Source: an uncultured Actinomycetes bacterium
GTDB taxonomy: Bacteria > Actinomycetota > UBA4738 > HRBIN12
DNA length: 64,000 nucleotides
Assembly (NCBI GenBank): GCA_963766935.1
Contig: CAVYBY010000007.1
Location: 3,911-67,910 of the forward strand
Reading direction: 5' to 3'
Shown here in pieces: positions 813-19,855 of this stretch (positions are counted from its first letter, which is position 1; the number at the start of each line of letters is the position of its first letter). Position numbers and translations under genes: made by a program. The notes below the pieces were generated by a model, which worked only from the letters and a program-made list of their open reading frames with translations, had not been told where the DNA came from and searched no databases.

Positions 813-825
813 GTCCGCCTCCTGT

Positions 826-1609: not shown

Positions 1610-1617
1610 CGGCTCCC

Positions 1618-1634: not shown

Positions 1635-1658
1635 ATGGTCTGCCTCTCCGCAACGGCG

Positions 1659-2947: not shown

Positions 2948-2976
2948 TGCGCGCGATGATGAATGCGCACTGATGC
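2939..2976 (+). repeat. 12-bp direct repeat GCGCACTGATGC at the soxB/yjbR junction
   Basis: Copies at 2939-2950 and 2965-2976, separated by 14 nt. Confidence 0.75.
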
Positions 2977-2980
2977 CTCC

Positions 2981-3600: not shown

Positions 3601-6344
3601 TGTCCGGGCGGCGTCTGGAGACCGGCGGACGATGGATCGACCGGACCACGCCGGTCGGGTTTGCCTTCGACGGACATGCGTACGAAGGGTTCGCCGGCGA
3701 CACGCTCGCGTCGGCGCTGCTGGCGAGCGGTATGGACGCGCCGTTCCGCAGCCCGATCCGCGGACGGCCGCGGGGCGTGTTCTCCGCCGGCGTGGAGGAG
3801 CCGAACGCCTTCGCCGAGGTGTCGGCGCCACGGTTCGACCTCATCGCGCCGGCGACGATGGTGGAGCTGGTCCCCGGGCTCGTGACCGAGTCTCGGAGCG
3901 GTATCGGGCGGCTTCCCGAGGATCCGGCCGGCGCGCCGGTGGCCCGGTCGGAGCACCGTCACGCGCACGTCGAGACCCTCGTGGTGGGCGCTGGCGTCGC
4001 CGGTTTGCGAGCCGCGCTCGAGGCCGTCCGCCGTGGCGACCGCGTGCTGCTCGTCGACGAACACCACCGCTTCGGCGGGTCCGCCACCTCGCTCGACAAG
4101 ATCGAGGGAGAGCCCGCATACGGATGGATCGAGCGCGCGGTCGCGGAGCTCGACGGAGCAGCCGACGCGCACGTGCTCGTCCGGGCGACGGCGCTCGGCG
4201 TCTACGACGAGGGCTACGTCGTGCTGCACGAGCGATCGCAGCGGGTCGAACGTCTCTGGCACGTGCGAGCCGGGCACGTGGTGCTCGCCACCGGCGCACA
4301 CGAGCGACCGATCGTATTCGAGAACAACGACCGCCCCGGCGTGATGCTCGCCTCGGCCGCACATCTGTATCTCGACCGGTTCGGCGTTCTTCCCGGCGAG
4401 CGCGCCGTCGTCTTTACGACCAACGACGCCGCCTACCGAAGCGCGTTCGCCCTCGCCGACGCCGGCCTGGAGATCGTGGCGATCGCCGATCCGCGCGACG
4501 GGCGCCCGATCCACGACGAGGCACGCAGCCGGGGTCTCGACGTGCGACCCGGAGTGGTGACCGGCGTCGACGGCGAACTCCGTGTCGAGTCGGTCCACAT
4601 CCGGTCGTCGGAACGATCCGGTGTGTCCTTCGCCGATCTGCTGCTCGTCTCCGGAGGCTGGAACCCGGTCGCCCAGCTGTGGAGAGCGGCCGGGGGTGGA
4701 CTTCACTACGACGAGGAGCGCGCGGCGTTCGTGCCCGCTCTTGCCGCCGGGCCGCCGTGGCTCTCGGTCGTCGGTCACGCGTCCGGCGACGGGTTGCCCG
4801 CCTCGAAAGAGGTGCCGTTCGTCCTCAACGGTCTGCTCGACGACCATTTCGTCGATCTGCAGCGCGACGCCTCCCTGTTCGCCGTCCAAGAGGCGGTTCT
4901 CGCTGGTCTGCGTTCGGTCGAGCACGTCAAGCGAGCCACCTACATCGGCACGGCCGTCGATCAGGGCCGGACGTCGGGCGTCGTCACCGCGTCGATCGTG
5001 AGCGCCTTCCTCGCGCATCCGCTCGAGGACCTGATTCGTGTGGGTCTGCCATCGGCCTCTCCGGAAGTGGAGCCGACCAGCGCGCGTCCGCCGTATGCGC
5101 CGGTGTCCTACTCGGTGCTCGCGGGGCCGGATCGCGGCCCGGTGCTCCTCGACCCGGTGCGCACGACGCCGATCAACGAATGGCACGCCGAGCGCGGCGC
5201 CGTCTTCGAGAACGTCGGTCAGTGGAAGCGGCCGCGCTACTTCCCCACCGGCGGCGAGGATCTGGACGCCGCGGTCGGGCGCGAGTGTCTGGCGGTGAGA
5301 ACCGGCGCCGGCGTGCTCGACGCGTCGACGCTGGGCAAGATCGACGTCGTCGGACCGGACGCCGGCGTCTTTCTCGACCGGATGTACACGAACCGGATGA
5401 GCAGCCTGCGAACCGGCCGTATCCGGTACGGACTGATGCTCGGGCTCGACGGCATGGCGATGGACGACGGCGTCGCGATGCGCCTCGCCGACGACCACTT
5501 CTTCGTCACGACGACGACCGGCGGCGCCGCGGCCGTCCTCGACCGGTTCGAGGAATGGCTCCAGACCGAGTGGCCCGATCTGCGCGTCTACTGCACGTCG
5601 GTGACCGAGCAATGGGCCGACGTCGCCGTGGGCGGACCCCGGGCGCGTGACGTGCTCGAGTCGGCCGGCACCGACCTCGACCTCGATCCCGCGGCCTTCC
5701 CGTTCATGACCGTGCGCGAAGGAACCGTCGCCGGCGTCCCGGCCCGGGTCGCGCGCGTCAGCTTCACCGGCGAGCTGTCGTACGAGATCAACGTCGAGGC
5801 ATGGCACGGGCGCCACGTCTGGGACGCGGTGATGGAGGCCGGTGCCTCGCTCGGCATCACGCCGTACGGAACCGAGACGATGCACGTCCTTCGCGCCGAG
5901 AAGGGCTTCCCGATCGTCGGCCAGGACACGGACGGCACGGTCACGCCCGACGACCTCGGGATGTCGTGGATCGTCGACATGGACAAGGGGGACTTCGTCG
6001 GGCGGCGCTCGCTCCGGCGGCCCGACACCATGCGGGCCGGACGCAAGCAGCTCGTCGGCCTCCTGCCGGCCGACCGCGACGTCCTCATCCCGGAGGGAGC
6101 GCAACTCGTCCTCGAAGAGACGGAACGAATCCCGATGCCGATGGCCGGACACGTCACCTCGAGCTACCGGAGCGCGGCGCTCGGCCGCACCTTCGCGCTG
6201 GCGATGCTGAACGACGGCCGCGCGCTCCACGGGTCGACGGTGTTCGCCTCGCACCCCGGCGGGACGGTCGCCGCCGAGGTCACGTCGCCGGTGTTCTGGG
6301 ATCCGGACGGACGCAGGCGCGACGGCGATCCGGAGGGTGGCTGA
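3600..6344 (+). CDS. soxA: Sarcosine oxidase subunit alpha
   Basis: GDTLASALLA, FAD/NAD motif VVGAGVAG, HVKRATYIGTAVDQGRTS and a GcvT-like C-terminal half (LDASTLGKI, RVSFTGELSYE, LRAEKG). TGATG coupling on both sides. Confidence 0.95.
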   Translation: MSGRRLETGGRWIDRTTPVGFAFDGHAYEGFAGDTLASALLASGMDAPFRSPIRGRPRGVFSAGVEEPNAFAEVSAPRFDLIAPATMVELVPGLVTESRSGIGRLPEDPAGAPVARSEHRHAHVETLVVGAGVAGLRAALEAVRRGDRVLLVDEHHRFGGSATSLDKIEGEPAYGWIERAVAELDGAADAHVLVRATALGVYDEGYVVLHERSQRVERLWHVRAGHVVLATGAHERPIVFENNDRPGVMLASAAHLYLDRFGVLPGERAVVFTTNDAAYRSAFALADAGLEIVAIADPRDGRPIHDEARSRGLDVRPGVVTGVDGELRVESVHIRSSERSGVSFADLLLVSGGWNPVAQLWRAAGGGLHYDEERAAFVPALAAGPPWLSVVGHASGDGLPASKEVPFVLNGLLDDHFVDLQRDASLFAVQEAVLAGLRSVEHVKRATYIGTAVDQGRTSGVVTASIVSAFLAHPLEDLIRVGLPSASPEVEPTSARPPYAPVSYSVLAGPDRGPVLLDPVRTTPINEWHAERGAVFENVGQWKRPRYFPTGGEDLDAAVGRECLAVRTGAGVLDASTLGKIDVVGPDAGVFLDRMYTNRMSSLRTGRIRYGLMLGLDGMAMDDGVAMRLADDHFFVTTTTGGAAAVLDRFEEWLQTEWPDLRVYCTSVTEQWADVAVGGPRARDVLESAGTDLDLDPAAFPFMTVREGTVAGVPARVARVSFTGELSYEINVEAWHGRHVWDAVMEAGASLGITPYGTETMHVLRAEKGFPIVGQDTDGTVTPDDLGMSWIVDMDKGDFVGRRSLRRPDTMRAGRKQLVGLLPADRDVLIPEGAQLVLEETERIPMPMAGHVTSSYRSAALGRTFALAMLNDGRALHGSTVFASHPGGTVAAEVTSPVFWDPDGRRRDGDPEGG

Positions 6345-6907
6345 TGGAATCGCCCGCGCTGGATCCCATCGCCCGACGGGCCCGCGACCTCATCGACCTG
6401 CCGCGGGCGACCGGCGGCGGCGTCGACTGCCGGACGATTCCTTTCTTCGCCCAGGTCGACCTCCGCCTGGACCCCGCCCATGCGGGACGCTCGCCCATCC
6501 CGCTGCCGCTCGAAGCCAACACGGCGCAGGAGGCGGGACCGCGCGCGGCGCTCTGGCTCGGTCCCGACAAGTGGCTCGTCCTCGGCCCCGCGGACAGCGC
6601 GGCAGGGATCGCCGCCGACCTCGACCGGGCGCTCGACGGACTCCATCGCTCGATCGTCGACGTCTCGGCCAACCGGGTGGTCCTGGAGCTGTCGGGTCCG
6701 GAGCGGCTGGATCTGCTCTCGACGGGATGCCCGATCGATCTGCATCCGAGGGCGTGGGGCCCCGGCCGGTGCGCCCAGACGCTCTTCGGCCGGGCGCCGG
6801 TCATCCTGCACGAACGATCGGACGCCACCGCCGTGCTCGTGCGGCCGTCGTTCGCCGACTACGTGATCGACCGGCTTCTGGCCCAGGTTTCCCCGCCGGG
6901 CGATTGA
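6344..6907 (+). CDS. soxG: Sarcosine oxidase subunit gamma
   Basis: LWLGPDKWL, VDVSANR, GCPIDLHPRAW...CAQT, RPSFADY. Confidence 0.92.
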   Translation: MESPALDPIARRARDLIDLPRATGGGVDCRTIPFFAQVDLRLDPAHAGRSPIPLPLEANTAQEAGPRAALWLGPDKWLVLGPADSAAGIAADLDRALDGLHRSIVDVSANRVVLELSGPERLDLLSTGCPIDLHPRAWGPGRCAQTLFGRAPVILHERSDATAVLVRPSFADYVIDRLLAQVSPPGD

Positions 6908-6976
6908 CAGCGGCAGGGCCGCACTGGACGATTCTTGCCGGTTCCACTTGACCGGTTCGACTTGGGAGGCAATCAC

Positions 6977-7474
6977 ATGTGGTCCTGGTTCACGTTCTGG
7001 CTGCTTCTTCACATCCTGGGCGCGATCGTCGCCTTCGGCCCGACCTTCACGTTCGGGTTGATCGGCGCGCAATCGGCGAAGGAGCCGATGCACGCCGAGT
7101 TCGCCACACGCCTCGTCCACATGATCTCGAAGAACGTCGTCATCCCGGTTGCGCTGTCGATGGCCGTCACCGGTGTCGGCCTGATCTTCGCCGGCCACGT
7201 CGACCTGTGGGGCTCCGAATGGCTGATCATCGCGATCGTCGTCTACGTCGGCGCGGTGGGCTTCTCGATCGCGGTCCAGGCGCCGACGGCCGAGAAGCTG
7301 ATCGGCGTCCTTCAGTCGATGCCGCCCGGTCCGCCGCCCGAGGGAGCAACCGGACCACCCCCGGCGATCGCGGCGCTGACGAAGAGGCTCACGATCGGCG
7401 GGATCTACCTGACCGTCAGCGTGCTGGTCATCGTGCTGCTGATGATCTGGCGCCCGGGAGCGGCCTTCTCGTAG
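6977..7474 (+). CDS. DUF2269-like integral membrane protein
   Basis: About 4 hydrophobic helices, LHILGAIVAFGPTF near the N-terminus and LMIWRP at the C-terminus. GGAGG RBS. Confidence 0.75.
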   Translation: MWSWFTFWLLLHILGAIVAFGPTFTFGLIGAQSAKEPMHAEFATRLVHMISKNVVIPVALSMAVTGVGLIFAGHVDLWGSEWLIIAIVVYVGAVGFSIAVQAPTAEKLIGVLQSMPPGPPPEGATGPPPAIAALTKRLTIGGIYLTVSVLVIVLLMIWRPGAAFS

Positions 7475-7486
7475 CCGGTCCGGCGA

Positions 7487-9937
7487 TCAGGCCCTGAGCC
7501 GCTCGCCGGCGGGGTCGACCAGCGGATCGGCGGCGACGGTCGCGGGAAGGCGCTCGTCGAAGTACTCGATCTCCACCGGCGTCCCCGCGGCCGCAAACTC
7601 GGCCGGCAGGTAGCCGTAGACGATCCCGCGCCCGATCGAGTAGCCGTACGCGGCGCTCGTCACGTAGGCCACCACATTCCCGCCGGCCCGGATCGGCTCC
7701 TTCCCCATGACCACGGCCGACGGATCGTCGAGCGTGATGCAGCTGAGCTTGTGGGCCGACCCTCGCTCGCGGATCGCCTCCAGGGCTTCCCGGCCCTGGA
7801 AGTCGCCCTTGTCCATGCGCACGGCGAAGCCGAGTCCCGCCTCGAACGGGTCGTGCTCGGTGCCGATGTCCTGGCCCCACAGCCGGTAGCCCTTCTCCAG
7901 GCGAAGCGAGTCGAACGCGCCGAGGCCGGCCGCCACCATCCCCAGATCGTGCCCGGCCTCCCACAACAGGTCCCAGACGCGCCCGCCCATCGCGAACGGT
8001 CCGTAGATCTCCCAGCCGAGCTCGCCGACATAGCTGATGCGAGCCGCCAGACAGTCGGCCTCGCCGACGTTGATCCGCTGCGCCCGCAGGTACGGGAACG
8101 CCTCGTTCGAGACGTCGGCGTCGGTCACCTGTTCCAGCACGTCGCGCGCGCGGGGACCCCACAGACCCAGCGCGAACAGCGACCCGGTCCGCTCGGTGAT
8201 CGAGACGCGCTCCCCCTCCCGGATCTGGAACCGAAGCCACGCGAGGTCGTGCTGCCCCGACCCGCCGCCGGTCACCACGCGGAACCGGTCGGCCAGGCGC
8301 ATGACGGTCAGGTCGCATCGGATGCCGCCCTTCGGGGTCAGCATCTGGGTGTAGACGATCGTTCCGACCGGGCGGTCGATGCGGTTGGCCGAGATCCGCT
8401 CGAGGAACCCGAGCGCGTCGGGCCCGGTCACGTCGAACTTCGCGTACGCCGTGATGTCGAGGACCCCGACACCGGATCGAACGGCGAGGTGCTCGGCGCC
8501 GACGCACGGCGACCAGTTCGCCGCCGCCCATCCATCCCTTCGCTCCCACGGCTCGCCGCGCAGCAGCGGCCGGTTCGCCTCGAACCACTGCGGCCGCTCC
8601 CAGCCCGCCCCGACGAAGAACTCGGCGCCGAGCTCGGCCTGCGCGCCGGAGAACGGCGTCAGCCGAAGCCCGCGCGGGTGCGACATCTGCTGGAGCGGAT
8701 GGATGACGTCGTAGACCTCCCGATACTGCTGCGCGCCGCGCGCTCGCACGTACGGCGGCGTCGTCATGAACGGGTAGAAGCGGTTCGCGTCGGCCTCGGC
8801 CAGATCCAAGCTTGGCTCCCCCGCGACCATCCACTCGGCCACCTGCCGGCCCATCCCGCCGCCGTGGGTGACCCAGACCGCCTCGCAGATCCAGACGCCG
8901 CGAACCTTTGCCGACTCGCCGACGATCGAGCCCATGTCCGGCGTGAACGAGAACATCCCGTTGATGGCGGTCGAGGGATCCATCCGCCCCTCGATCGGGG
9001 GAAGGAGCCTGACGCTCGCCTCCTCGGCCACCTCGAAGTCCTTCGGCGTGAAGGGCTCGATCGAGGGCATCCGGTCGCCACCGGGTCGCCGCAGGTCGGC
9101 GGGGTCGAACAAGATCGGCTCGTGCCGGTAGTTGCCGACACCGTAGCGGTCCTGCTGCTGCCGGTAGTACAGCGACATGTCCTGATGCCGCAGGATCGGG
9201 TGGACCACCTCGCGTGTCTCGCCGGCGAGCTCCGGCAGCGGGAGCGTCCACATCAGCTGGTGCTGGACGACCGCCAGCGGGATGGGAACGCCGGCCATCG
9301 CGCCGATCCGCGGCCCCCAGATGCCCGCGCACACGAGCACCGTTTCGCATTCGACGTTTCCGCGATCGGTCTGAACGCCTCGGACGCGGCCGTCGCGGAT
9401 GTCGAACCCGGTGACGGTCACGCCGCCTTCGAACCCGACGCCGCGTGCTTCGGCCGCGCGGGCGAGGGCGGCTGCGGCCCGCACGCCCTTGGCGATCCCG
9501 TCGCTCGGGACGAGATACGAGCCGAGGATCTCCGAGGGGTCCAGCAGCGGGATCCGCGCCGCGGTGTCCTGGGGCGAGAGCAGGGTGGCGCCCTCGATCC
9601 CGTAGGACCGTGCGAACCCCATCCGGCGCTTCAGCTCCTGCATCCGCTCGGGGGTCGTGGCCACCTCGATGCCGCCGACGCCGTACCAGCAGGGCTCGCC
9701 GTCGAGCTCGAGCGAGGCGTACAGCTCGACGGTCTGCTGCGCGATCCGGCACATCGTTCGCGAACCGTTGGTCTGGAAAACGAGGCCGGGGGCGTGCGAC
9801 GTCGAGCCGCCGGTCTCGAACAGCGGCCCCTGGTCCAGGACCAGCACGTCGGTGAGCCCGAGCTCGGCAAGGTGATGGGCGGCGCTCGTGCCGACGATCC
9901 CGGCCCCGATGACGACGACCTGGGCTCGATCGCGCAT
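7487..9937 (-). CDS. Dimethylglycine oxidase/dehydrogenase-like FAD oxidoreductase with a GcvT (THF-binding) domain
   Basis: Starts MRDRAQVVVIGAGIVG, then GGSTSHAPGLVFQ, FSFTPD, EAVWVTHGGG, ERPQWF, RISYVGELGWE and SLRLEKGY. 816 aa. Confidence 0.9.
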   Translation of the reverse strand: MRDRAQVVVIGAGIVGTSAAHHLAELGLTDVLVLDQGPLFETGGSTSHAPGLVFQTNGSRTMCRIAQQTVELYASLELDGEPCWYGVGGIEVATTPERMQELKRRMGFARSYGIEGATLLSPQDTAARIPLLDPSEILGSYLVPSDGIAKGVRAAAALARAAEARGVGFEGGVTVTGFDIRDGRVRGVQTDRGNVECETVLVCAGIWGPRIGAMAGVPIPLAVVQHQLMWTLPLPELAGETREVVHPILRHQDMSLYYRQQQDRYGVGNYRHEPILFDPADLRRPGGDRMPSIEPFTPKDFEVAEEASVRLLPPIEGRMDPSTAINGMFSFTPDMGSIVGESAKVRGVWICEAVWVTHGGGMGRQVAEWMVAGEPSLDLAEADANRFYPFMTTPPYVRARGAQQYREVYDVIHPLQQMSHPRGLRLTPFSGAQAELGAEFFVGAGWERPQWFEANRPLLRGEPWERRDGWAAANWSPCVGAEHLAVRSGVGVLDITAYAKFDVTGPDALGFLERISANRIDRPVGTIVYTQMLTPKGGIRCDLTVMRLADRFRVVTGGGSGQHDLAWLRFQIREGERVSITERTGSLFALGLWGPRARDVLEQVTDADVSNEAFPYLRAQRINVGEADCLAARISYVGELGWEIYGPFAMGGRVWDLLWEAGHDLGMVAAGLGAFDSLRLEKGYRLWGQDIGTEHDPFEAGLGFAVRMDKGDFQGREALEAIRERGSAHKLSCITLDDPSAVVMGKEPIRAGGNVVAYVTSAAYGYSIGRGIVYGYLPAEFAAAGTPVEIEYFDERLPATVAADPLVDPAGERLRA

Positions 9938-9951
9938 GCCGGTCCGCCGCC

Positions 9952-10866
9952 CTACGAGGCGGTGCCTTCCTCCTCGGAGACCCCGTCGGAGGAGACGGGG
10001 CGGGCGGCCCGGCCGTAGGACTCGACGAGCTGCCGCCGCCAGTCCTGGGTGCTCTTGACCTGGTTGAAGGTGTAGATGTGGAACCCGGCGATGCCGTAGC
10101 CGGGGTTGGCAACGAACGGCGCGACGTTGGCGACGAACGCGTCGGGCCGGTAGCCGCCCCGTTTCATCAGCCGGGCGACGAGACCGCCGTACTTGCTCAC
10201 GTACTTCACCGACGGGCCCACGCCGACCCGCAGGGACACCTCGATCAGCCGCCGCCGGTTGACCGCCCCCGCCATGCCGATCACGACCGGGAGCTCGATG
10301 CCCCGATCGCGGATCCGCGCGATCCAGGCGGCCACGACGCGAGGCTCGAAGCAGATCTGGGTGGCGACGTGCGAGGCGACCTGCGCCTTGTCGGCGAGCG
10401 CCTCGAGCAGGACTTCCTCGTCGATCAGCGGATGGCCCTCCGGATACCCGCCCACGCCGATCTCGGAGGGCCGCGGACCGGCGTCGGCGATCGCGGCCAG
10501 CAGCTCGCCCGCCGATGCATACGGCCCGAGCGGGTCGTGCCCGTCGCCGCCGATGACGAAGAGCCGGGAGATCCGGGCGGCGTCGAGGCGGCCGAGGATC
10601 TCCTGGAGGTGCTCGCGGCTGCGAACGGTCCGGGCGGACACGTGCGGCATGACCTCGTACCCGTCCATGTGGAGGCGTTCCGCGAGATCGAGCGTCGGAT
10701 CGGGGCCCCTGTGCGGCGAGCACGTGACGGTGACGACCGAGCCCTTCGGCAGCGCCTCGGTCACCTTGGACTCGATGCCGCCCATGGGGATGACTTCGAA
10801 CCGAGCCCGGGCCAGCAGCTCGCCCAGACCCGGCCGCATCGAGCCGAAACCGGCCTGCCTGCTCAC
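9952..10866 (-). CDS. metF: Methylenetetrahydrofolate reductase (MetF family)
   Basis: VTVTCSP, MPHVSARTV, LFVIGGD, GGYPEGHP, ATQICF, HIYTFNQ. Confidence 0.85.
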   Translation of the reverse strand: MSRQAGFGSMRPGLGELLARARFEVIPMGGIESKVTEALPKGSVVTVTCSPHRGPDPTLDLAERLHMDGYEVMPHVSARTVRSREHLQEILGRLDAARISRLFVIGGDGHDPLGPYASAGELLAAIADAGPRPSEIGVGGYPEGHPLIDEEVLLEALADKAQVASHVATQICFEPRVVAAWIARIRDRGIELPVVIGMAGAVNRRRLIEVSLRVGVGPSVKYVSKYGGLVARLMKRGGYRPDAFVANVAPFVANPGYGIAGFHIYTFNQVKSTQDWRRQLVESYGRAARPVSSDGVSEEEGTAS

Positions 10867-10890
10867 AGCTCTTGTCTCATGATTTTGGGC

Positions 10891-12066
10891 TCACGACTTC
10901 GGGATCTCCTTCTTCGGATCCCAGTGCGGCATCTCGACGACGGTGGCATCCACACGTCCGGACGCCGGGGTCTCCGTCTGCAACGCGGTCCCGAGCTCCG
11001 CGAACTCGATCGGCACCATCGCCAGGCCGATGTTCTTCTCCAGACGCGGCGAGTGGCAGGCGCTCGTCACGCGGCCGACCTGCCGGCCGTCGGCGAACAC
11101 CGGGAAGAAGTCGACCATCTCGTTGTCGATGTAGCTGCCGACCGGGTCGCCGCCGATGTCCACGCCCACCAGCTTCTGGGTCACGCCCTCGTCGCGGATG
11201 CGCCGGAGCGCTTCCTTGCCGACGAAGTCGGCCTCCTGATCGAGGTCGACCATCCACGTGTAGTGGTACCCGACCTCGTAGGGGTTGTTCTCGTACCACA
11301 TGTCCGCTCCGAAGGCGAGAATGCCACCCTCGATGCGCCGGATGTGACACGGCCCGATGACGCGCAGGTCGACCGGTTTGCCGGCCTCGAGAACGGTGTC
11401 CCACAACTTCTGCCCGTTCTGGCTCGCGTCGTGCAGGTAGATCTCGTATCCGACCTCCCCCGTGTAGCCGGTGCGCGAGATGACGACGTCCATCCCCTCC
11501 AGCGTCGTCTGCATGAGGCCGTAATACGGCACGTCGAGAATCTTCTCGCCGAACAGGTTCGTCAGCACCTGCTTCGCGTTCGGTCCCTGGATCTGCAACG
11601 GCGCGACGTCGATCTCCTTCACCGTCACGTCCATGCCCTTCGCGTGCGCGATGCCCAGCGCGTACAGATTCACGTCGCTGTCGGCGAGCGAGAGCCAGAA
11701 CTCGTCCTCGGCCACGCGCAGGAGAACCGGGTCGTTGAGGATGCCGCCGTCGGGCGCGGTGATGAACACGTACTTCGCCTGGTCGACGGCGCACTTGTGC
11801 AGGTCGCGCGGCACGATCATGTTCGTCAGGTCGAACGCGTCGGGCCCCTTGATCTGGATCTGCTTTTCCACTCCCACGTCCCAGAGCGTCACGTTGTTCA
11901 CGAGCGACCAGTACTCGCTCACCGGGTCCCCGTAGTGACGCGGGTGGTAGGTGTGGTTGTAGACGCTGTAGCGGTGCACGCCGTGCTGGCGCGAGGCGTA
12001 GAAGTAGGGCGACTTGCGGATCCGCGTGTACAGCAGGATCCCGGGGTTCTCGATCACCTCAGGCAC
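10891..12066 (-). CDS. GcvT-family THF-dependent demethylase, DmdA-like
   Basis: RIRKSPY...YSVYNH, LWDVGVEKQIQIKGPDA, GGILNDPV (NDP as in DmdA, not the DD of GcvT), WLSLADSD, SRTGYTGEVGYE, RRIEGGIL. Confidence 0.85.
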   Translation of the reverse strand: MPEVIENPGILLYTRIRKSPYFYASRQHGVHRYSVYNHTYHPRHYGDPVSEYWSLVNNVTLWDVGVEKQIQIKGPDAFDLTNMIVPRDLHKCAVDQAKYVFITAPDGGILNDPVLLRVAEDEFWLSLADSDVNLYALGIAHAKGMDVTVKEIDVAPLQIQGPNAKQVLTNLFGEKILDVPYYGLMQTTLEGMDVVISRTGYTGEVGYEIYLHDASQNGQKLWDTVLEAGKPVDLRVIGPCHIRRIEGGILAFGADMWYENNPYEVGYHYTWMVDLDQEADFVGKEALRRIRDEGVTQKLVGVDIGGDPVGSYIDNEMVDFFPVFADGRQVGRVTSACHSPRLEKNIGLAMVPIEFAELGTALQTETPASGRVDATVVEMPHWDPKKEIPKS

Positions 12067-12100
12067 GGGACAGGCTCCTTTCTCCGTGGCCGGGGGCTGC

Positions 12101-12117
12101 GTTGCTCAAGGCGCAAC
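12101..12117. promoter_or_regulatory. Putative operator GTTGC-N7-GCAAC (copy 2), upstream of the dmdA-like gene
   Basis: Perfect inverted arms GTTGCTCAAGGCGCAAC, between the promoter and the start codon. Confidence 0.72.
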
Positions 12118-12139
12118 AACAGTGGGCTCTCCGCAACCG

Positions 12140-12169
12140 ACGCTATGACCGGCGGCGATGCCCTGTCAA
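12140..12169 (-). promoter_or_regulatory. Sigma-70-type promoter (TTGACA-N18-TAGCGT) for dmdA-like/metF/dmg
   Basis: The minus strand reads TTGACAgggcatcgccgccggtcaTAGCGT followed by GTTGCGGAGAG, the same layout as the iclR promoter. Confidence 0.68.
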
Positions 12170-12189
12170 GACGGACGGCGGACGCCCGG

Positions 12190-13185
12190 TCAGCCCGAGG
12201 TGTGCTGGTAGGCGACCAGATCGCCGCCGCGCAGAGCGACGATCCATCCCTCGAGCGTTCCCTGCACGTACTCGCTGCCGGGGTTGAAGCACTGGGTCCG
12301 GCGGATCCGGAAGCGGCCGGCCGACTCGTGGATGTGGCCGTGCAATGAGACGGCCGGCTGATAGGCCGTCACGGCCTCGCGGACCGCGACGCTTCCACCC
12401 CCCGTGGTCACGAACCGGCCGGCTTCCCTCACCGGGACCGGGAACCCGCCCGGTTCCTTCGGAGGACCGAGCTTGAGGCAGGTGTCGATGGGGGTGTTCT
12501 TCGGCGGGCAGTGGAAGTTGAAGACGCACCGGCCGACATCGGGGACGCGGGCCACCTCGCGCCGGATCGCTTCCGCGATCTCGCCCTCGCTCGCCTCCCG
12601 CGGGGTGTCCCAGGGCGTGAAGGTGGAGAGACCGACCGTGATCATCGTGTGCTGGTCGTCCAGCTCGACGAGGCGGCCCTCACAGCCGACGACCCGGTCG
12701 CCGTGGTGCCGGTCCAGCGTCTCGAGCACCGACGGCTCGTCGTCGTTCCCGCCGGTCAGGAACATCCGAGCGGGGGTTCCGGCGAGGGTCTCCTCGGCCA
12801 GCTGGATCCACTCGGCGAGGCGCGCGCTGGCGGTCTCGTGGAAGAGGCCCTTGACGGCGAGTGCGTCCGATCTCAGCTCCGCGTACCTGTCCGGTTCCAC
12901 GACGACCCAGTAGAAGCCGGTCCGCTCGATGCTCGCGCGAAACGCCAGGAGCTCGTCCTCGCCTTCGAGGGAGTGCTCCGTGCCCTGGAAGTGAGCGCGA
13001 TAGCCGCCGCTCTTCCTGACGATCGGCACGAGCGCCTTGCCCATCAGGTCCCCACCGAACACCAGCGCGTCGACGCCGTAGAACTTCGCCGCGTTCAGGA
13101 ACTTCCGAAACGCGACCTGCGAACCGTGGATGTCGGCGGCAAAGAAGATGCGGGTTGGCCGAGGTCGCCGACGCCCGAGCGGCAT
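12190..13185 (-). CDS. Icc-related calcineurin-like metallophosphoesterase, paralog 1
   Basis: AADIHGS, GGDLMGK, GGNDDE, FHCPP, HGHIHES, NPGSEY. ATG at 13185. Confidence 0.85.
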   Translation of the reverse strand: MPLGRRRPRPTRIFFAADIHGSQVAFRKFLNAAKFYGVDALVFGGDLMGKALVPIVRKSGGYRAHFQGTEHSLEGEDELLAFRASIERTGFYWVVVEPDRYAELRSDALAVKGLFHETASARLAEWIQLAEETLAGTPARMFLTGGNDDEPSVLETLDRHHGDRVVGCEGRLVELDDQHTMITVGLSTFTPWDTPREASEGEIAEAIRREVARVPDVGRCVFNFHCPPKNTPIDTCLKLGPPKEPGGFPVPVREAGRFVTTGGGSVAVREAVTAYQPAVSLHGHIHESAGRFRIRRTQCFNPGSEYVQGTLEGWIVALRGGDLVAYQHTSG

Positions 13186-13189
13186 GGCC

Positions 13190-14644
13190 TCACCCCAGGT
13201 CGATGACGATCGTCTTGAGCTCGGTGAGCCGCTCCATCGAGAAGCGGCCGCCGACGCGGCCGACGCCGCTTTGCGATCCGGACGCGCCGCCAAAGGGAAG
13301 GTGGGACTCCCAGTAGTTCGTTCCCTCGTTCACGTTGACCCAGCCGGTCCGGACCGCCTCGGCATACCGAAGGCCGCGCCGGAGATCGCGCGTGAACACG
13401 GCCGAAAGCAGCCCGTAGGACGAACGATTGACGAGCTCGATCGCCTCCTGCTCGGACCGGATCGTCGTGATCGGGGCGACCGGCCCGAACGTCTCCTCGC
13501 GCGCGATCTCCATGTCCTCGGTGACCCCGTCGAGCACCGTCGCCTCGAAGAAGAGGTCGCTGCCGTGTTCGGCCGCGCGGTGGCCGCCCGACACGAGCGT
13601 GGCGCCGGCGCCGACGGCCTGCTCGACGTGACGCTGGCTCTTGGCAGCCGTCGGCTCGTTGTTGAGCGGGCCCATCGTGGTGGCCGCATCGAACGGATCG
13701 CCGAGGCGAATCTGCTCGACGGCGGCCGTCAGGGCGGCCAGATAGTCGTCCTTCACGTCCTCGTGCACCAGGATCCGCTCCCCGGCGGTGCAGCTCTGGC
13801 CGGCGTTGAGGAAGCAGGCGACGAGGGTGGCTCCGACGGCGGCGTCCAGGTCGGCGTCCTCGAGCACGACGAGCGGCCCGTTGCCGCCCATCTCGAGCAG
13901 CAGCTCCTTTCCCGCCGCCCGCGCGGCAACCGCGTGGCCGGTGGCGATCGAGCCGATGAACCCGATCGCCTGCGTGCCCGGGTTCGCGGCGATCTCGTCG
14001 CCGACGACCGGGCCGTGACCGGTCACGAGGTTCACGACGCCGGCAGGAAGATCCGCCGCCTCGAGGCACTCGGCGAAGCGGACGGCGCAGACCGCGGTCG
14101 TCGGCGCGGGGACCCACACCACCGCGTTTCCGTATGCGATCGCCGGCGCGAGGATCTCGCCCGGCATTGTGTACGGCCAGTTCCACGGGCTGATGATCGA
14201 GACGATGCCGCGGGGGACGCGCTGCAGCAGCACCCGCTTGTTCGCGTCGATGGACGGCGGAAGGAGTCCCTCCATGCGGGTCGCATCGGCGGCGGCCATG
14301 TCGAAGTAGGCGATCAGCTCCTGGACCTCGTCGCGAGCCTCCGCTTCGAGCGGCTTGCCCTGGTCGAGTGCGAGCGTCGCCGCCAGGTCCTCGCGGCGCG
14401 CGTCGATCGCCTCGGCGATCCGGCGCATCGCGGCGGCCCGGTCGAACGCCGAGCGACTCGCCCAGCCCGGCTGGGCGTCGGCGGCGGCGGCGATCGCCCG
14501 GTGCGCGTCCGCCCGGGAGCCCTGGGCGACGGTCCCGATGACCGCGCCGGTCGAGGGCGAGAACGCCTCGAACGTGGCGCCGTCTTCCGCCGGCACCCAC
14601 GCCCCACCGATCCACAGCCGATGCTCGTCCGCCACGTCGCTCAC
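13190..14644 (-). CDS. NAD(P)-dependent aldehyde dehydrogenase
   Basis: SPWNWP, FIGSIATG, LEMGGNGP (catalytic Glu), NAGQSCTA (catalytic Cys), EETFGPV, PFGGASGSQSG. GTG start at 14644. Confidence 0.93.
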   Translation of the reverse strand: MSDVADEHRLWIGGAWVPAEDGATFEAFSPSTGAVIGTVAQGSRADAHRAIAAAADAQPGWASRSAFDRAAAMRRIAEAIDARREDLAATLALDQGKPLEAEARDEVQELIAYFDMAAADATRMEGLLPPSIDANKRVLLQRVPRGIVSIISPWNWPYTMPGEILAPAIAYGNAVVWVPAPTTAVCAVRFAECLEAADLPAGVVNLVTGHGPVVGDEIAANPGTQAIGFIGSIATGHAVAARAAGKELLLEMGGNGPLVVLEDADLDAAVGATLVACFLNAGQSCTAGERILVHEDVKDDYLAALTAAVEQIRLGDPFDAATTMGPLNNEPTAAKSQRHVEQAVGAGATLVSGGHRAAEHGSDLFFEATVLDGVTEDMEIAREETFGPVAPITTIRSEQEAIELVNRSSYGLLSAVFTRDLRRGLRYAEAVRTGWVNVNEGTNYWESHLPFGGASGSQSGVGRVGGRFSMERLTELKTIVIDLG

Positions 14645-14663
14645 CTTAGGCCGAAACGGCCGA

Positions 14664-14685
14664 GGGGCGGCCCGGAGGCCGCCCC
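14664..14685 (-). terminator. Intra-operon GC stem-loop after the APC permease gene (terminator or mRNA stabiliser)
   Basis: GGGGCGGCC-cgga-GGCCGCCCC, a perfect 9-bp stem. There is no U-tract. Confidence 0.5.
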
Positions 14686-14712
14686 GTCGAACCCGTCGCG
14701 CCGAACCGCGTG

Positions 14713-16326
14713 TTACTCGACCGGGATCTCCTGATAGATGGCTTTCAGGTCGATCCCCTGGCTCTTGCGGTAGATCTTCGCGACCACATAGACGACCACC
14801 GCCAGCAGGTACATCGAGCCCATGAACCACAGCGACGTGGAGTTGTTGACGTAGTACACGTCGTTGGTGAACCACTCGTACAGGTTGAAGCCCAGGAACA
14901 GGGCGCTGATGGTCCCCGTCACCGTGATCAACGGGATCCCGGCGATCTTGTATCGCGCGATCGCGGAGTTCTCGTACAGGTGCTTCTTCCGCCACGGCAG
15001 GATGATCGCCGCGATGGACGTCCCGAAGAACGTCACCGCGATCACGAGCGTCGCATCCAGGATGTACGTGGCGAAGTTGTCCGTGTAGGCGTAGAGCAAA
15101 CCGACGATGAGCGACGGCACCAGCATCAGGATCAGCGCCCAGACCGGGACGTGGCGCTTCTCGGTCACGTCGGCCACCTTCTCCGGCAGGATCCGGTCGA
15201 ACGCCGCGGCGAAGATGACCCGCGTCGACGACAGGAACAGCGTGCCGGCCCACCCGAGGAACCAGGCGCCGAACATCAGCACGAGGATCGCCTGGACCAA
15301 CGCGTTGTGGAAGAAGAAGCTCACGAGGAGCGGCGGATACGACCAGACCGGGACCGTGCCGGTGCCGTTCCAGTAGTCGAGGTTGGCCGCGTTGAAGAAG
15401 TCCCAGCCGAAGAACTTGGACGAGAGCAGCAGGAAGGCGACCGCGACGGCGATCGTGACCCACAGGCCCCACATCATGCCGCTCATGACGCGCTTGAAGT
15501 CGCTCGCGCCGCGGACCTCGCCGTAGAGCGTGGCGCCCCAGTTCGGCCAGAGGATCCAGAAGCACAGGAACGGGATCAGCAGGAGCGAGTCCCCGAGGAA
15601 CGGCGAGAACCCGAGCTTTGCCGGCAACGCTCCGCCGGCCCCGTCGATGATGCCCTGATAGGCGTTGTCGACGCCGAACAGCTTCGAGGACTCCGTGTTG
15701 AAGGCGCTCTCGAAGCCGCTGCGCGACCCGAACAGCATCACGAGGAAGACGATGCCGAGCGCGATCATCCCGACGTAGAAGCAGTACTTCTGGATCTTCG
15801 CGTACCCCTCCATGCCGAGCGAGACGAGCGCGCCGGCCAGAACGACGACCAGGACGATCACCGTGAACAGGCCGATGTCCTTGCCGAGGAAGTCGAGCGC
15901 GCCCTGCCACTTGAGGATGGCGGCGAGAGGCTGCAGCACCTCGACGTTGAAGATGCCGCCGTAGACGGGCGCCCAGTACCACAGGATGAACCACCACCCG
16001 GTGACGGCCAGGACGAACCCGATCCCGCCGCCCAGGATGCGGCTCTGCCAGACGTAGTCGCCTCCGGCGCGCGGCATCACGGAGATGAGACCGGCGTAGG
16101 TGACGACGAGGAAGGACACGAACACGCCGGAGATCAGCAGCGCGGGAAGGACCTGCCCGGTCGTGACGAAGCCGAGCACCGACAGGGCATAGAACAGCCC
16201 GAGCGTCACGAAGTTGATCGACATGAACGAGTAGAGGAACGAGTCGAACTTCGACCAGCCCTTGACCAAGCCGGTCGCCTTGCGCAGGAACAACGTGGGA
16301 GCCTCGCCTACCGCTGCCATCTGCAC
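14713..16326 (-). CDS. APC superfamily amino acid/amine permease
   Basis: FLRKATGLVK at the N-terminus, MPRAGGDYVWQSR, YGEVRGA, RVIFAAAFDRILP, AIYQEIPVE at the C-terminus. About 12 hydrophobic helices. Confidence 0.9.
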   Translation of the reverse strand: MQMAAVGEAPTLFLRKATGLVKGWSKFDSFLYSFMSINFVTLGLFYALSVLGFVTTGQVLPALLISGVFVSFLVVTYAGLISVMPRAGGDYVWQSRILGGGIGFVLAVTGWWFILWYWAPVYGGIFNVEVLQPLAAILKWQGALDFLGKDIGLFTVIVLVVVLAGALVSLGMEGYAKIQKYCFYVGMIALGIVFLVMLFGSRSGFESAFNTESSKLFGVDNAYQGIIDGAGGALPAKLGFSPFLGDSLLLIPFLCFWILWPNWGATLYGEVRGASDFKRVMSGMMWGLWVTIAVAVAFLLLSSKFFGWDFFNAANLDYWNGTGTVPVWSYPPLLVSFFFHNALVQAILVLMFGAWFLGWAGTLFLSSTRVIFAAAFDRILPEKVADVTEKRHVPVWALILMLVPSLIVGLLYAYTDNFATYILDATLVIAVTFFGTSIAAIILPWRKKHLYENSAIARYKIAGIPLITVTGTISALFLGFNLYEWFTNDVYYVNNSTSLWFMGSMYLLAVVVYVVAKIYRKSQGIDLKAIYQEIPVE

Positions 16327-16348
16327 CCCCTCCCGGGTCGGAACGGCC

Positions 16349-17296
16349 TCAGCCGTTCACCAGTTGGTAGTTCTTGATCTTCCCCTTCTTCGGATCGATG
16401 TTCACGATCGCGGCTTGCAGGATGCCCTCTTCGTAGGAGCTGCCGGGGTTGAGCGCGAGGGTCGTCCCGATCCGCGCGGCCCCCTTGCTCTCGTGGATGT
16501 GCCCGTGCAGCGACAACACCGGCTGGAACCGCTGGACGGCTTCCAACACCGACGTCGATCCGACCGGGCCGAGCGCCTGCCCGCCCGACTTGTACGTCAG
16601 GTCGTCGTTGAGCGCCGGCGCGTTGTCGAGCTTCGAGCCGTACGGCGGCGCGTGGAAGTTGAGGATCGTGGTCGCCGGATCGGACGCGTGCTCGAGCGCG
16701 TGCTCGATCCGGGTCGCGATCTCCGGCTCTTCCGCCTCACGGAACGTGTGCCAGGGCGTCGGATTGGTCCAGCCCATCGAGATCATCGTGTAGCCGCCGA
16801 GATCGATCGGGTGGTCCTCGTCGCCGGTCTCAACGACGTTCGCGTGCGTTAGCAGGTCGTCGATCTCGAACATGTCGTCGTTTGCGGGGCAGGCGATCAC
16901 GCGAATCCCGGTGCCGGCCAGCTTGTCCTCGGCCATCGCGATCCACCGCTCGGTCCCCTCGAGCATGACTTCCTTGAAACGCTTGTCGACGAGGTCGGCG
17001 TCCTCCTGCATGGCGCGGTACTCCTCCTCGGAGACCCGGATCGGGTAGTAGCCGCGGTTCATGACGCGTTTTTCGAACTCCGTGATCTCTTCTGAGGTCT
17101 CGAGCGTCTCGCGGAAGTCCTGCAGGGAGGCCTCCCAGGTGCCGTCGGCCCTCTGCACGATGGGCACCATGGCCTTGCCGGTCACGTCGCCGCCCAGGAT
17201 GACCGCGTCTGCCTTGTAGAAGGCCCCCGCGTTGAGGAACTTCCTCCAGCAGATCTCGGACCCGTGCAGGTCCGTCACGAAGAAGAGTTTCAGCAC
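16349..17296 (-). CDS. Icc-related calcineurin-like metallophosphoesterase, paralog 2
   Basis: VTDLHGS, GGDVTGK, PANDD, FHAPP, HGHIHES, NPGSSY. GTG start at 17296. Confidence 0.85.
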   Translation of the reverse strand: MLKLFFVTDLHGSEICWRKFLNAGAFYKADAVILGGDVTGKAMVPIVQRADGTWEASLQDFRETLETSEEITEFEKRVMNRGYYPIRVSEEEYRAMQEDADLVDKRFKEVMLEGTERWIAMAEDKLAGTGIRVIACPANDDMFEIDDLLTHANVVETGDEDHPIDLGGYTMISMGWTNPTPWHTFREAEEPEIATRIEHALEHASDPATTILNFHAPPYGSKLDNAPALNDDLTYKSGGQALGPVGSTSVLEAVQRFQPVLSLHGHIHESKGAARIGTTLALNPGSSYEEGILQAAIVNIDPKKGKIKNYQLVNG

Positions 17297-17352
17297 TCCA
17301 TCCCCACTCGAGGAGCGATGATCGCCCTCACGCCACACGCGCGCAAGGAACG

Positions 17353-17369
17353 GTTGCAGGATCCGCAAC
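17353..17369. promoter_or_regulatory. Putative operator GTTGC-N7-GCAAC (copy 3), between phosphoesterase 2 and betA
   Basis: Perfect inverted arms GTTGCAGGATCCGCAAC in the divergent intergenic region. Confidence 0.72.
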
Positions 17370-17433
17370 ACCGATGCGGCAGTAGCGCCGGGGACGCTCC
17401 CCACGGCGGCCCGCGGTGGTGCAGACTCCGGGC

Positions 17434-19083
17434 GTGAGCGATTCCTACGACGTCGTGATCGTCGGCGGAGGCTCCGCCGGAAGCGTCCTGGCCAACCGAC
17501 TCTCCGCCGACCCGTCGACCACGGTCCTCGTGCTCGAGGCGGGGCGCCCGGACCGGTTGTGGGACGTCTTCATCCACATGCCCGCCGCGCTGACGTTCCC
17601 GATCGGCAGCCGGTTCTACGACTGGAAGTACGAATCCGAGCCCGAGCCGAACATGGGCGGCCGCCGGATCTACCACGCCCGGGGCAAGGTCCTCGGCGGA
17701 TCGAGCAGCATCAACGGGATGATCTTCCAGAGAGGCAATCCGCTCGACTACGAGCGGTGGGCGTCGGCGCCGGGTATGCAGACGTGGGACTACGCCCACT
17801 GCCTGCCGTACTTCAAACGCATGGAGACCTGTCTGGCGGCCGCGCTCGACGATCCGTTCCGCGGCCACTCGGGCCCGCTCGTCCTCGAGCGTGGTCCGGC
17901 GACGAGCCCGTTGTTCGGCGCGTTCTTCGAAGCCGTACAGCAGGCCGGCTTCCGCCTGACCGACGACGTCAACGGCTACCGGCAGGAGGGGTTCGCGCCC
18001 TTCGACCGCAACATCCACCGGGGGCGGCGCCTCTCGGCCGCCCGGGCGTACCTGCACCCCGTCCAATCCCGCCCGAACCTTCACGTGAAGACGCGCGCGT
18101 TCGTCGGCAAGATTCTCTTCCGCGGCAACCGTGCGACGGGCGTCGAGTTCACCCACGGCGGCTCGGAGCACCGGGTCGAGGCCGGCGAGGTCATCCTGTG
18201 CGGCGGAGCGATCAACTCACCCCAGCTGCTTCAGCTCTCGGGCATCGGGAAGGCAGCCGATCTCGAAGCGCTCGGGATCGACGTGGTCGAGAATCTGCCG
18301 GGCGTGGGGGCCAACCTCCAGGACCATCTCGAGGTCTACGTCCAGTACGCGAGCACGCAGCCGGTGTCGGTCGCGCCGTACCTCAAGTGGCGGTACCGGC
18401 CGTGGGTCGGCTTCCGCTGGCTGTTCTTCCGGTCGGGACCGGGCGCGACGAACCACTTCGAGGGCGGCGGGTTCGCGCGCAGCAACGACGAGGTCGCGTA
18501 TCCGAACCTGATGTTCCACTTCCTTCCGATCGCCATCCGCTACGACGGCTCCGCGCCGGCCGGCGACCACGGCTACCAGGTCCACATCGGTCCGATGAAC
18601 TCCGACGCCCGTGGCAGCGTCAAGACCGTCAGCACCGACCCGCACGTGCACCCGGAGCTTCGCTTCAACTACCTCTCGACCGATCAGGATCTTCGCGAGT
18701 GGGTCGAGGCCATCCGGACCGCACGGCTGATCCTCGGTCAGCCGGCATTCGAGCCGTTCAACGGCGGCGAGCTGTCTCCGGGAACCGAGGTCGAAACCGA
18801 CGAGCAGATCCTCGACTGGGTCCGCGCCCAGGGCGAGACGGCGCTGCACCCGTCGTGCACGTGCGCGATGGGGACGGGCCCGGATGCCGTGACCGACCCC
18901 ACCAGCCTTCGCGTGCTCGGCACCGAGGGCCTGCGCGTCGTCGACGCGTCCGCGATGCCGCTGATCACCAACGGCAACATCTACGCGCCGGTGATGATGC
19001 TTGCGGAGAAGGCGGCCGATCTCATCGCCGGCACGACGCCGCTTCCCGTCGAGCCGATCGAGTTCTACCGCCACACCGGCTGA
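17434..19083 (+). CDS. betA: Choline dehydrogenase (GMC oxidoreductase)
   Basis: [81 protein letters not shown]. Confidence 0.9.
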
Positions 19084-19102
19084 CGCGGCCGCGGTCGTCG
19101 GC

Positions 19103-19855
19103 CTAGTGGCCGACCTCTTCGGGCAGCTCGTACCACTTCACGCGGTCGCCGACCTTGGCGCGCAGCTTCCACCTGACCGTCTTCGGCACGGCGTCGCAAT
19201 GCTCGCGGATCGTCTGGATCTGCGCGATCGGATCGTGGCGCCTCGCCTCCGGCACCAGGTCGCGATGCTCGCCGTCGGCGAGCGCCGCCAGCTTGTCCAG
19301 GTTGCCGGTGACGGTTCGCCACCATCCCCAGTCCTCGGCGACGATCCCACCGATACGACCGAGCCCGATCGTCCCGGGCTCGTCGCCGTGCTTCACCTCG
19401 TGCGCCGAGAGCAGGTGGAGCATGTCGTGCACGTCCTTGCGGTTGAGCTCGACGATCTGGAGCTTGGAGAGCAGCAGGTCGGCGACATCGAGGGTGTGGG
19501 GCAGCCGGTCGATCCGGTCCTTGAAGTCGAGGACGTGACACATGTTGAGGCGGTCCATGATGACGTCGACGCTCGTCGCGCCGTCGGCCGTCGTGAAGTA
19601 CATCTGCCGGTCGCCGTGGAGCAGGTTGAACCGCTGGTCGCCGAGGAATCCCTTCTCCCCCAGGAAGTCCATCACGGGCCTCTTCGCCGACGAGACCGAC
19701 GCGAAGTCCATGTCCTGATCGTCGCGGGCGCGGTGCGGGAACAGGGGGCACAGCAGCCGCACCGCCTGGCCGCCGACGAGCTTCAGCGGGATCCCGCGCT
19801 CGTTCGCCTCGCGGACGGTACCTACCGAGGCTTCGAACGCATCGTCGCCGTCCAT
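19103..19855 (-). CDS. Uncharacterised Pol-beta-superfamily nucleotidyltransferase-like protein
   Basis: LVGGQAV-x13-DMDF fits the hG[GS]...DhD pattern, with a likely third Asp in SVDV. Also LLLSKLQIVELNRKD and WYELPEEV. Strong GAGGAG RBS before ATG at 19855. Confidence 0.7.
   Translation of the reverse strand: MDGDDAFEASVGTVREANERGIPLKLVGGQAVRLLCPLFPHRARDDQDMDFASVSSAKRPVMDFLGEKGFLGDQRFNLLHGDRQMYFTTADGATSVDVIMDRLNMCHVLDFKDRIDRLPHTLDVADLLLSKLQIVELNRKDVHDMLHLLSAHEVKHGDEPGTIGLGRIGGIVAEDWGWWRTVTGNLDKLAALADGEHRDLVPEARRHDPIAQIQTIREHCDAVPKTVRWKLRAKVGDRVKWYELPEEVGH

Follow-up and report, generated by a model that had tools for sequence, protein, structure and literature searches.

Which enzyme takes the first methyl off glycine betaine at a locus that otherwise appears equipped to turn choline into glycine? 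The locus lies in a 64,000-nucleotide stretch of DNA from an uncultured Actinomycetes bacterium (C7:3911-67910, hereafter the window), where an original prediction, made from the letters alone, had singled out a gene for a protein resembling DmdA, the dimethylsulfoniopropionate (DMSP) demethylase. This gene adjoins a gene for a MetF-like protein and one for dimethylglycine oxidase (DMGO). Analysis of the protein, its relatives and its neighbors leads us to conclude that it probably catalyzes the reaction betaine + tetrahydrofolate (THF) -> dimethylglycine (DMG) + 5-methyl-THF. The assembly spans 2.59 Mb in 12 contigs with 70% GC and is 93% complete. Because high GC yields many spurious open reading frames, genes were called by third-position GC and then checked against Pfam and NCBIfam.

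The dmdA-like operon

The features of the unit and its presumptive control region are as follows.

10891-12066, minus strand: DmdA-like GcvT-family protein, candidate glycine betaine:THF methyltransferase (391 aa; GCV_T and GCV_T_C domains)
9952-10866, minus strand: MetF-like methylene/methyl-THF oxidoreductase, S6MTHFR-like (PF02219, weak match of 38 bits)
7487-9937, minus strand: DMGO, 816 aa (DAO, FAO_M, GCV_T and GCV_T_C domains)
12067-12189, minus strand: promoter/operator region of the dmdA-like/metF/dmg unit (123 bp)
17353-17369, no strand assigned: second exact copy of GTTGC-N7-GCAAC, between the metallophosphoesterase operon and betA
809-1636, minus strand: IclR-family regulator, directly upstream of the DmdA-like gene in many relatives

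The genes for the DmdA-like protein, the MetF-like protein and DMGO follow one another with gaps of 24 and 14 bp. Upstream of the unit, 123 bp of DNA contain a TTGACA-like box, the palindrome GTTGC-N7-GCAAC (12101-12117, GTTGCGCCTTGAGCAAC) and a ribosome-binding site, GAAAGGAG. Given these short gaps and promoter-like elements, the DmdA-like gene heads a three-gene operon, as had been predicted. DMGO gives a full-length match of 764 bits to the Arthrobacter globiformis enzyme (1PJ5). Since exact palindrome copies stand both at 12101-12117 and at 17353-17369, the unit seems to own a regulated promoter within a common regulon, and GTTGC-N7-GCAAC seems to be an operator of IclR type shared by the DmdA-like unit and the betA and phosphoesterase units. 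A scan of 7000-19500 for sigma-70 promoters and terminators gave nothing useful, as expected at 70% GC. A near-match to the palindrome occurs at 1618-1634.

Family, fold and active-site residues of the DmdA-like protein

The motifs YSVYNH, GGILNDPV and WLSLADSD are found in the protein, which has ND at the place of the DD seen in GcvT, the glycine cleavage T protein; the original prediction had read these motifs as DmdA-type, correctly. The top NCBIfam model is DmdA (NF009133), with 336.9 bits against a cut-off of 410. For comparison, DmdA of Pelagibacter strain HTCC9565 scores 623 bits, and the protein's orthologs from four further genomes reach 325-343. The second-ranked match, the Tdm C-terminal domain (222 bits), is below its cut-off, as is the SoxA family model, which scores far under DmdA. 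GcvT (TIGR00528) gives 151.4 bits against a cut-off of 235.85, and the LigM/DesA models NF047885 and NF047633 give 58.6 and 76 bits against cut-offs of 580 and 800, matching the N-terminal half only.

The best sequence match in the PDB is DmdA of P. ubique (3TFH; E 2.8e-64, 35% identity). An AlphaFold2 model (pLDDT 86) also superposes best on 3TFH (TM 0.88/0.93), followed by GcvT (TM ~0.83) and LigM (TM ~0.69). The protein thus combines the GcvT fold and the GCV_T/GCV_T_C domain pair with the N-D-P motif of DmdA, and its THF-binding residues are shared with DmdA, GcvT, dimethylglycine dehydrogenase (DMGDH) and Tdm.

The tryptophan reported to contact DMSP, W171 (PMC7487153), corresponds to W197 of chain 3TFH_A. 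The equivalent residue is tyrosine (Y201) throughout the clade of the window protein. This position was dropped as a DmdA discriminator because three top-scoring alphaproteobacterial DmdAs (L251, L254 and L255) also have tyrosine there. Several positions are invariant in the window clade and differ in DmdA, so that H41, F101, Y201, C240-H241 and an insertion around D314-M317 are candidate substrate determinants; most of them differ from the paralog clade too.

The 2.6-Mb genome holds four DmdA-like genes, namely the window gene and paralogs at C2:~374060-375184, C11:14351-15529 and C11:15619-16779. These are 45-51% identical to it, score under the DmdA cut-off and have tryptophan at the W171 position. 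Further GcvT-like genes are present elsewhere in the genome. The C11 paralogs stand in tandem by amidohydrolase-like and proteasome/Pup genes and the C2 paralog by a CrtI-like FAD oxidoreductase, as named by eye; a by-eye reading of the protein sequences of their gene neighbors offered no clue to the substrates of the three.

Phylogeny and distribution

A tree of 114 sequences was built from window-protein orthologs, the genome's own three paralogs, GcvT-like outgroups and a DmdA set. The last comprised the P. ubique DmdA of 3TFH, three SAR11 DmdAs and 29 alphaproteobacterial sequences from a 201-genome sample, of which 11 reach the NF009133 cut-off and 18 fall short of it. Authentic DmdAs form a clade of 13 rows (SH-aLRT 100) from which the window protein is excluded. 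It falls instead in a clade of its own with 74-75 rows (SH-aLRT 88-89), nested in a 99-supported group that lacks DmdA and has no member scoring well above the DmdA cut-off.

Members of the window clade come from Thermoleophilia, Rubrobacteria and many cultured Actinomycetes, including Saccharopolyspora, Brachybacterium, Nocardiopsis, Prauserella, Nesterenkonia, Arthrobacter and Actinopolyspora. Outside the actinobacteria, the clade includes Halomonadaceae, Ectothiorhodospiraceae and metagenome-assembled genomes (MAGs) of a Steroidobacteraceae, an alphaproteobacterium and a Thermomicrobium. Hosts labeled Natrialbaceae (L156) and Ca. Velamenicoccus (Omnitrophota, L044) were left out of this taxonomic breadth, their contigs looking mis-binned. 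These contigs and two others, L179 and L190, assigned to a Flavobacteriaceae and a Nitrosopumilaceae, look like binning errors because their genes closely match Halomonas, actinobacterial or SAR11 sequences. Of 301 Actinomycetota genomes sampled evenly, 34 (~11%) carry a clade gene, counted at 57% identity or more. The closest loci (80/80) are from soil or groundwater MAGs, the close relatives being Actinomycetota without exception, and for such hosts DMSP is an unlikely major substrate.

These results bear directly on whether the protein is simply a genuine DMSP demethylase (EC 2.1.1.269). DmdA is its top-scoring family and structure, and it shares 35% identity with the Pelagibacter enzyme. 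Against this stand a score of 337 bits where 410 are required, a position outside the DmdA clade, the soil-lineage hosts, and dmg, sox and bet synteny that is foreign to SAR11 dmdA. In a control set of 67 SAR11 dmdA loci with 4-kb flanks, a MetF-like or DMGO/DMGDH-like neighbor was found in 0/67. We regard this explanation as most improbable. The original prediction would have fallen had the protein grouped within authentic DmdA; because of its separate clade and sub-cut-off scores it does not, and by these sequence comparisons we conclude that it is not an authentic DmdA.

The MetF-like partner

The best PDB match of the MetF-like protein, whose gene lies 24 bp from the DmdA-like gene, is S6MTHFR (7XG9, also 7XLF; E 8.7e-34); ordinary methylenetetrahydrofolate reductases (MTHFRs) reach ~1e-6, with the next best at 2.8e-07. 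S6MTHFR is the "type 4" MTHFR of Sphingobium lignivorans SYK-6, which oxidizes CH3-THF to CH2-THF and has hardly any reactivity with NADH; its gene adjoins that of LigM, a THF-dependent demethylase, and its homologs accompany DesA, CmuAB and Dmt (PMC11868366). That an S6MTHFR-like partner adjoins the DmdA-like gene is the strongest argument for 5-methyl-THF as the product of the DmdA-like enzyme.

This pairing also bears on a second explanation, that the DmdA-like protein is an aminomethyl- or formaldehyde-trapping T-protein. It would then form 5,10-methylene-THF from the iminium or formaldehyde product of a neighboring oxidase (BetA, a monomeric sarcosine oxidase [MSOX] or a Rieske enzyme), much like the GcvT domains found in DMGO, SoxA and Tdm. 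Such a role would suit the fold and THF-binding residues held in common with GcvT, DMGDH and Tdm, and the rank of the Tdm C-terminal domain as second NCBIfam match at 222 bits. However, the protein has the DmdA-type ND instead of DD and is nearest to DmdA, a true methyltransferase; a partner from the methyl-THF-oxidizing MTHFR lineage would be pointless if the product were already methylene-THF; and DMGO and SoxA have GcvT domains of their own. We therefore hold this role to be quite improbable and retain methyl transfer to THF as the preferred reading.

Synteny in other genomes

Gene neighborhoods were compared in 49 close ortholog loci (80-88% identity) and in 51 distant ones (59-70% identity) drawn from other classes and phyla, all with at least 3 kb of flank. 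Of the 49 close loci, 46 have a DMGO-like gene no more than 3 kb away; at a distance of up to 10 kb, BetA occurs in 32 and soxA in 29. Among the distant loci, a MetF-like gene is found within 1.5 kb in 35/51 and a DMGO/DMGDH-like gene within 3 kb in 36/51, so a DMG oxidase or dehydrogenase neighborhood is conserved over distant taxa. A lack of co-occurrence with dmg and sox genes had been named as grounds for abandoning the prediction; on the contrary, the co-occurrence is tight across phyla.

Several loci outside the close relatives are instructive. The operon of the Thermomicrobium MAG comprises DMGO-like, DmdA-like, MSOX-like DAO, GMC oxidoreductase, metallophosphoesterase and APC permease genes. 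Judged by family assignment, it holds one enzyme for each step from choline to glycine, with the DmdA-like gene as the only candidate for betaine to DMG. In S. spinosa, soxG-A-D-B and a GntR gene are followed by DMGO-like, DmdA-like, MTHFR and formyltetrahydrofolate synthetase (FTHFS) genes. The Halomonas halodenitrificans locus has FTHFS, a GbdR-type AraC regulator (DJ-1/PfpI + HTH_18) and a DMGDH-like gene, then the DmdA-like gene and MTHFR. Brachybacterium and Nesterenkonia loci carry DMGDH-like, IclR and DmdA-like genes, then MTHFR or FTHFS.

Canonical betaine demethylases

The original prediction rested in part on a pathway hole, the window having no GbcAB Rieske oxygenase, betaine-homocysteine methyltransferase (BHMT) or MtgB corrinoid methyltransferase. 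This holds for the whole of contig C7, where no Rieske, S-methyl_trans or MttB domain was detected. The suggested search of the rest of the genome came out differently. MttB is absent from the whole genome, and no GbcA was found, the two Rieske oxygenases scoring 178-186 bits against a cut-off of 670. A BHMT homolog of animal type (344 aa) is, however, encoded at C3:10570-11604; it matches rat and human BHMT at E ~1e-69 to 1e-70 (rat 3e-70) and is under the bacterial NCBIfam BHMT cut-off. The premise of a hole is therefore only partly right for this genome, which strictly has none, and the hole is real for other carriers of the clade gene: in S. spinosa, Arthrobacter sp. VKM Ac-2550 and the Thermomicrobium MAG, neither GbcA above cut-off nor BHMT-like nor MttB genes were found. 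Arthrobacter sp. Rue61a grows on betaine, and its predicted pathway was described as "incomplete" (PMC3534580).

Across the 301 Actinomycetota genomes, GbcA above cut-off occurs in none (0/301), a sub-cut-off GbcA-like gene in 7 and a BHMT-like gene in 29 (~10%); in the organism's own family, BHMT-like genes are commoner than the DmdA-like gene. The 34 clade carriers divide into 13 with a BHMT-like gene, 5 with a GbcA-like gene and 16 with neither.

Proposed reaction and evidence against it

In the proposed pathway, choline dehydrogenase BetA and an aldehyde dehydrogenase (ALDH) would supply betaine from choline. The DmdA-like protein would act as a cofactor-free GcvT-fold methyltransferase of the DmdA/LigM kind, in whose active site betaine would sit near N5 of THF. 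SN2 transfer of the intact methyl group from betaine to N5 would then give DMG and 5-methyl-THF. The co-transcribed MetF-like enzyme would convert 5-methyl-THF to 5,10-methylene-THF, which could feed C1 oxidation (through FolD, and FTHFS in relatives) or serine synthesis, while DMGO would take DMG to sarcosine and SoxBDAG sarcosine to glycine. The whole gene set would apparently answer to one IclR-type regulator. Of the predicted THF-dependent betaine demethylase distinct from DmdA, the separation from DmdA, the co-occurrence with dmg and sox genes and the S6MTHFR-like partner have stood; we still infer betaine as the methyl donor, along with 5-methyl-THF as the product and the oxidative direction of the MetF-like enzyme.

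A number of observations weigh against this pathway. The main objection is chemical: a methyl group is given up far less readily by a quaternary ammonium than by a sulfonium, a tertiary amine being a worse leaving group than a thioether. Established betaine demethylases rely on a Zn-thiolate, Co(I) or O2. Authentic DmdA is said not to use betaine, as Reisch et al. reportedly found in 2008. On the other side, LigM demonstrates that a GcvT-type fold copes with unreactive methyl donors.

The MetF-like partner is a further difficulty. Eight residues of S6MTHFR have been tied to NADH exclusion and CH3-THF oxidation, namely L48, P49, R78, F215, C219, P268, F269 and G270 (PMC11868366). The MetF-like protein retains two of the eight, P49 and F269, the others being substituted (L48S, R78T, F215V, C219V, P268T, G270N). 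With so few retained, it is a relative of type 4 that cannot be demonstrated to be a member, and its direction and electron acceptor are attributed indirectly; it may be an additional kind of MTHFR that uses another electron acceptor.

Gene content supplies the remaining points. On C3, the BHMT homolog lies directly upstream of an MSOX/N-methyltryptophan-oxidase-like gene (C3:9402-11604), and the pair may give this genome another betaine route, linked to homocysteine. In Halomonas halodenitrificans, the clade gene occurs together with a true GbcA (818 bits) and a BHMT-like gene. With BHMT in this genome, and GbcA and a BHMT-like gene in H. halodenitrificans, the clade gene is not always needed to close the pathway. 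In the 301-genome sample, BHMT-like genes are positively associated with the clade gene (13/34 vs 16/267; odds ratio 9.7, uncorrected for kinship), a pattern that fits two betaine-using functions in one organism rather than mutual replacement. At Arthrobacter loci the clade gene has no dmg or metF neighbors and is accompanied by an MFS transporter and a LysR regulator alone, and the genome's three further paralogs imply that the DmdA-like family handles several substrates. The idea that the clade gene is a general replacement for BHMT, for which an anticorrelation was expected, is not supported by the positive association. The BHMT-MSOX-like pair on C3 is followed by purE/purK-like genes (named by eye).

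Three of these points are also what a third explanation would draw upon. In it, the protein is a THF-dependent methyltransferase for another onium compound, such as proline betaine, carnitine or gamma-butyrobetaine, choline, trigonelline, S-methylmethionine or another sulfonium, and its linkage to dmg and sox genes comes through the common THF C1 pool. Four DmdA-like genes in one genome suggest diverse substrates for the family, the Arthrobacter loci have their transporter and regulator only, and Halomonas and this genome already possess canonical betaine demethylases. Yet the conserved neighbor is specifically of the DMG oxidase or dehydrogenase type, and DMG arises by demethylation from betaine only. 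The Thermomicrobium and S. spinosa operons hold all the steps from choline or betaine to glycine but this one, and no genes for products such as N-methylproline or norcarnitine were seen in the clusters. We consider another onium donor unlikely and continue to favor betaine.

Choline, aldehyde and sox genes around the unit

The genes on either side of the three-gene unit are listed here.

17416-19083, plus strand: choline dehydrogenase BetA (TIGR01810, 806 bits vs cut-off 732), divergent
16349-17269, minus strand: metallophosphoesterase 2, divergent (weak PF14582), conserved in relatives
14713-16326, minus strand: APC-family permease, candidate choline importer (PF13520, PF00324)
13190-14662, minus strand: aldehyde dehydrogenase, candidate betaine-aldehyde dehydrogenase (PF00171, 495 bits)
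12190-13185, minus strand: metallophosphoesterase 1, divergent (weak PF00149), kept beside the cluster in relatives
3336-6344, plus strand: soxA (TIGR01372, 1017 bits vs cut-off 1164; Fer2_4, SO_alpha_A3, GCV_T and GCV_T_C domains)
1738-2947, plus strand: soxB, split over two reading frames (TIGR01373)

On the minus strand, the order from upstream to downstream is metallophosphoesterase 2, APC permease, ALDH, metallophosphoesterase 1, the 123-bp gap, DmdA-like, MetF-like and DMGO. The IclR regulator and the sox genes (1738-6951) flank the other side of the cluster from BetA. The original prediction had counted BetA, ALDHs, a dimethylglycine oxidase and SoxBDAG as all present, and this stands for BetA, DMGO and soxA. 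The ALDH scores 350-378 bits against betaine-aldehyde dehydrogenase models, under their cut-offs, and is a generic ALDH. The soxB gene is present in split form: positions 19-105 of TIGR01373 match in the frame of 1738-2856 (up to ~2020) and positions 116-407 in the frame of 2045-2947, meaning that the MAG has a frameshift error here or else that the gene is a pseudogene. soxD and soxG were not confirmed in the window by Pfam or NCBIfam models and are placed by position alone; soxA carries ~100 extra N-terminal residues at the expected place of soxD.

The two metallophosphoesterases and the APC-type permease accompany choline and betaine genes as far afield as Thermomicrobium (L285:6328-10430). 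This suggests a phosphocholine or glycerophosphocholine esterase together with a choline permease. Elsewhere in the window, at 44876-46408, a PF04185 "phosphoesterase family" protein (PlcH/AcpA family) is encoded, which may release phosphocholine from lipids.

Implications

In soil, plants and brines, few nitrogenous osmolytes are more abundant than glycine betaine and choline. Actinobacteria are known classically for degrading both, and in most of them the enzyme for the first demethylation is unassigned. If our reading is true, it closes the long-open first betaine step in Arthrobacter-type soil bacteria, with the methyl group kept as 5-methyl-THF for methionine synthesis or energy and no oxygen or cobalamin required. 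Betaine turnover would have to be re-read in genomes and metagenomes, where clade genes are now annotated as "glycine cleavage T protein" or "DmdA". The chemistry of DmdA and LigM would widen from sulfonium and aryl-ether to quaternary ammonium donors, and a further MTHFR type would be defined.

Recent papers name only BHMT, GbcAB and MtgB for betaine demethylation (PMC9321204, PMC12093977). We found no report of a THF-dependent betaine demethylase of the GcvT/DmdA type in a literature search that left most subscription journals uncovered, so prior publication is possible. On balance, we lean toward the view that a widespread GcvT-fold clade constitutes a fourth route of betaine demethylation, independent of O2, corrinoid and homocysteine and coupled to an unclassified S6MTHFR-like methyl-THF oxidase.

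Comparison with known systems

DmdA (3TFH, NF009133) and the window protein are both stand-alone GcvT-fold proteins of ~370-390 aa with the ND motif and the THF-binding residues, and would have in common a redox-neutral reaction in which an onium compound passes a methyl group to N5 of THF. They differ in that the window protein is 35% identical to DmdA, sub-cut-off and in a separate clade, with clade-specific H41, F101, C240-H241 and the D314-M317 insertion. DmdA belongs to marine Alphaproteobacteria, whereas the window clade occurs in soil actinobacteria and halophiles with dmg/metF/sox synteny. The donor of DmdA is a sulfonium, and that proposed for the window clade is a quaternary ammonium.

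A DmdA paralog adjoining metF is already on record in Pelagibacter, where SAR11_1265 was described as a DmdA-like aminomethyltransferase of open function, with methylmercaptopropionate (MMPA) as a speculated substrate (Sun et al., 2011, PMC3160333). Unlike the window protein, to which it is 47% identical, SAR11_1265 is judged a W-type paralog by identity and by the motifs SRTGW and LVNL, a placement made outside the tree analysis. A paralog of this type (L281, G001:C2:160119-161198) scores 389 bits against the DmdA model, slightly under the cut-off.

The LigM/DesA and S6MTHFR module of SYK-6 is alike in its logic, a demethylase making CH3-THF that an adjacent MetF oxidizes to CH2-THF (PMC11868366). 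LigM itself is distant from the window protein (59 bits vs 580; TM ~0.69), the substrates of LigM and DesA are aryl methyl ethers, and of the eight S6MTHFR residues the window MetF-like protein retains just two, P49 and F269.

BHMT (EC 2.1.1.5), the GbcAB/BmoAB Rieske monooxygenase and MtgB carry out the same overall step, betaine to DMG, with folds and chemistry unrelated to those of the DmdA-like enzyme. BHMT depends on homocysteine and Zn, GbcAB requires O2 together with NADH and frees formaldehyde, and MtgB relies on a corrinoid protein. In contrast to these three, the proposed DmdA-like route would need THF alone and would conserve the methyl group as CH3-THF.

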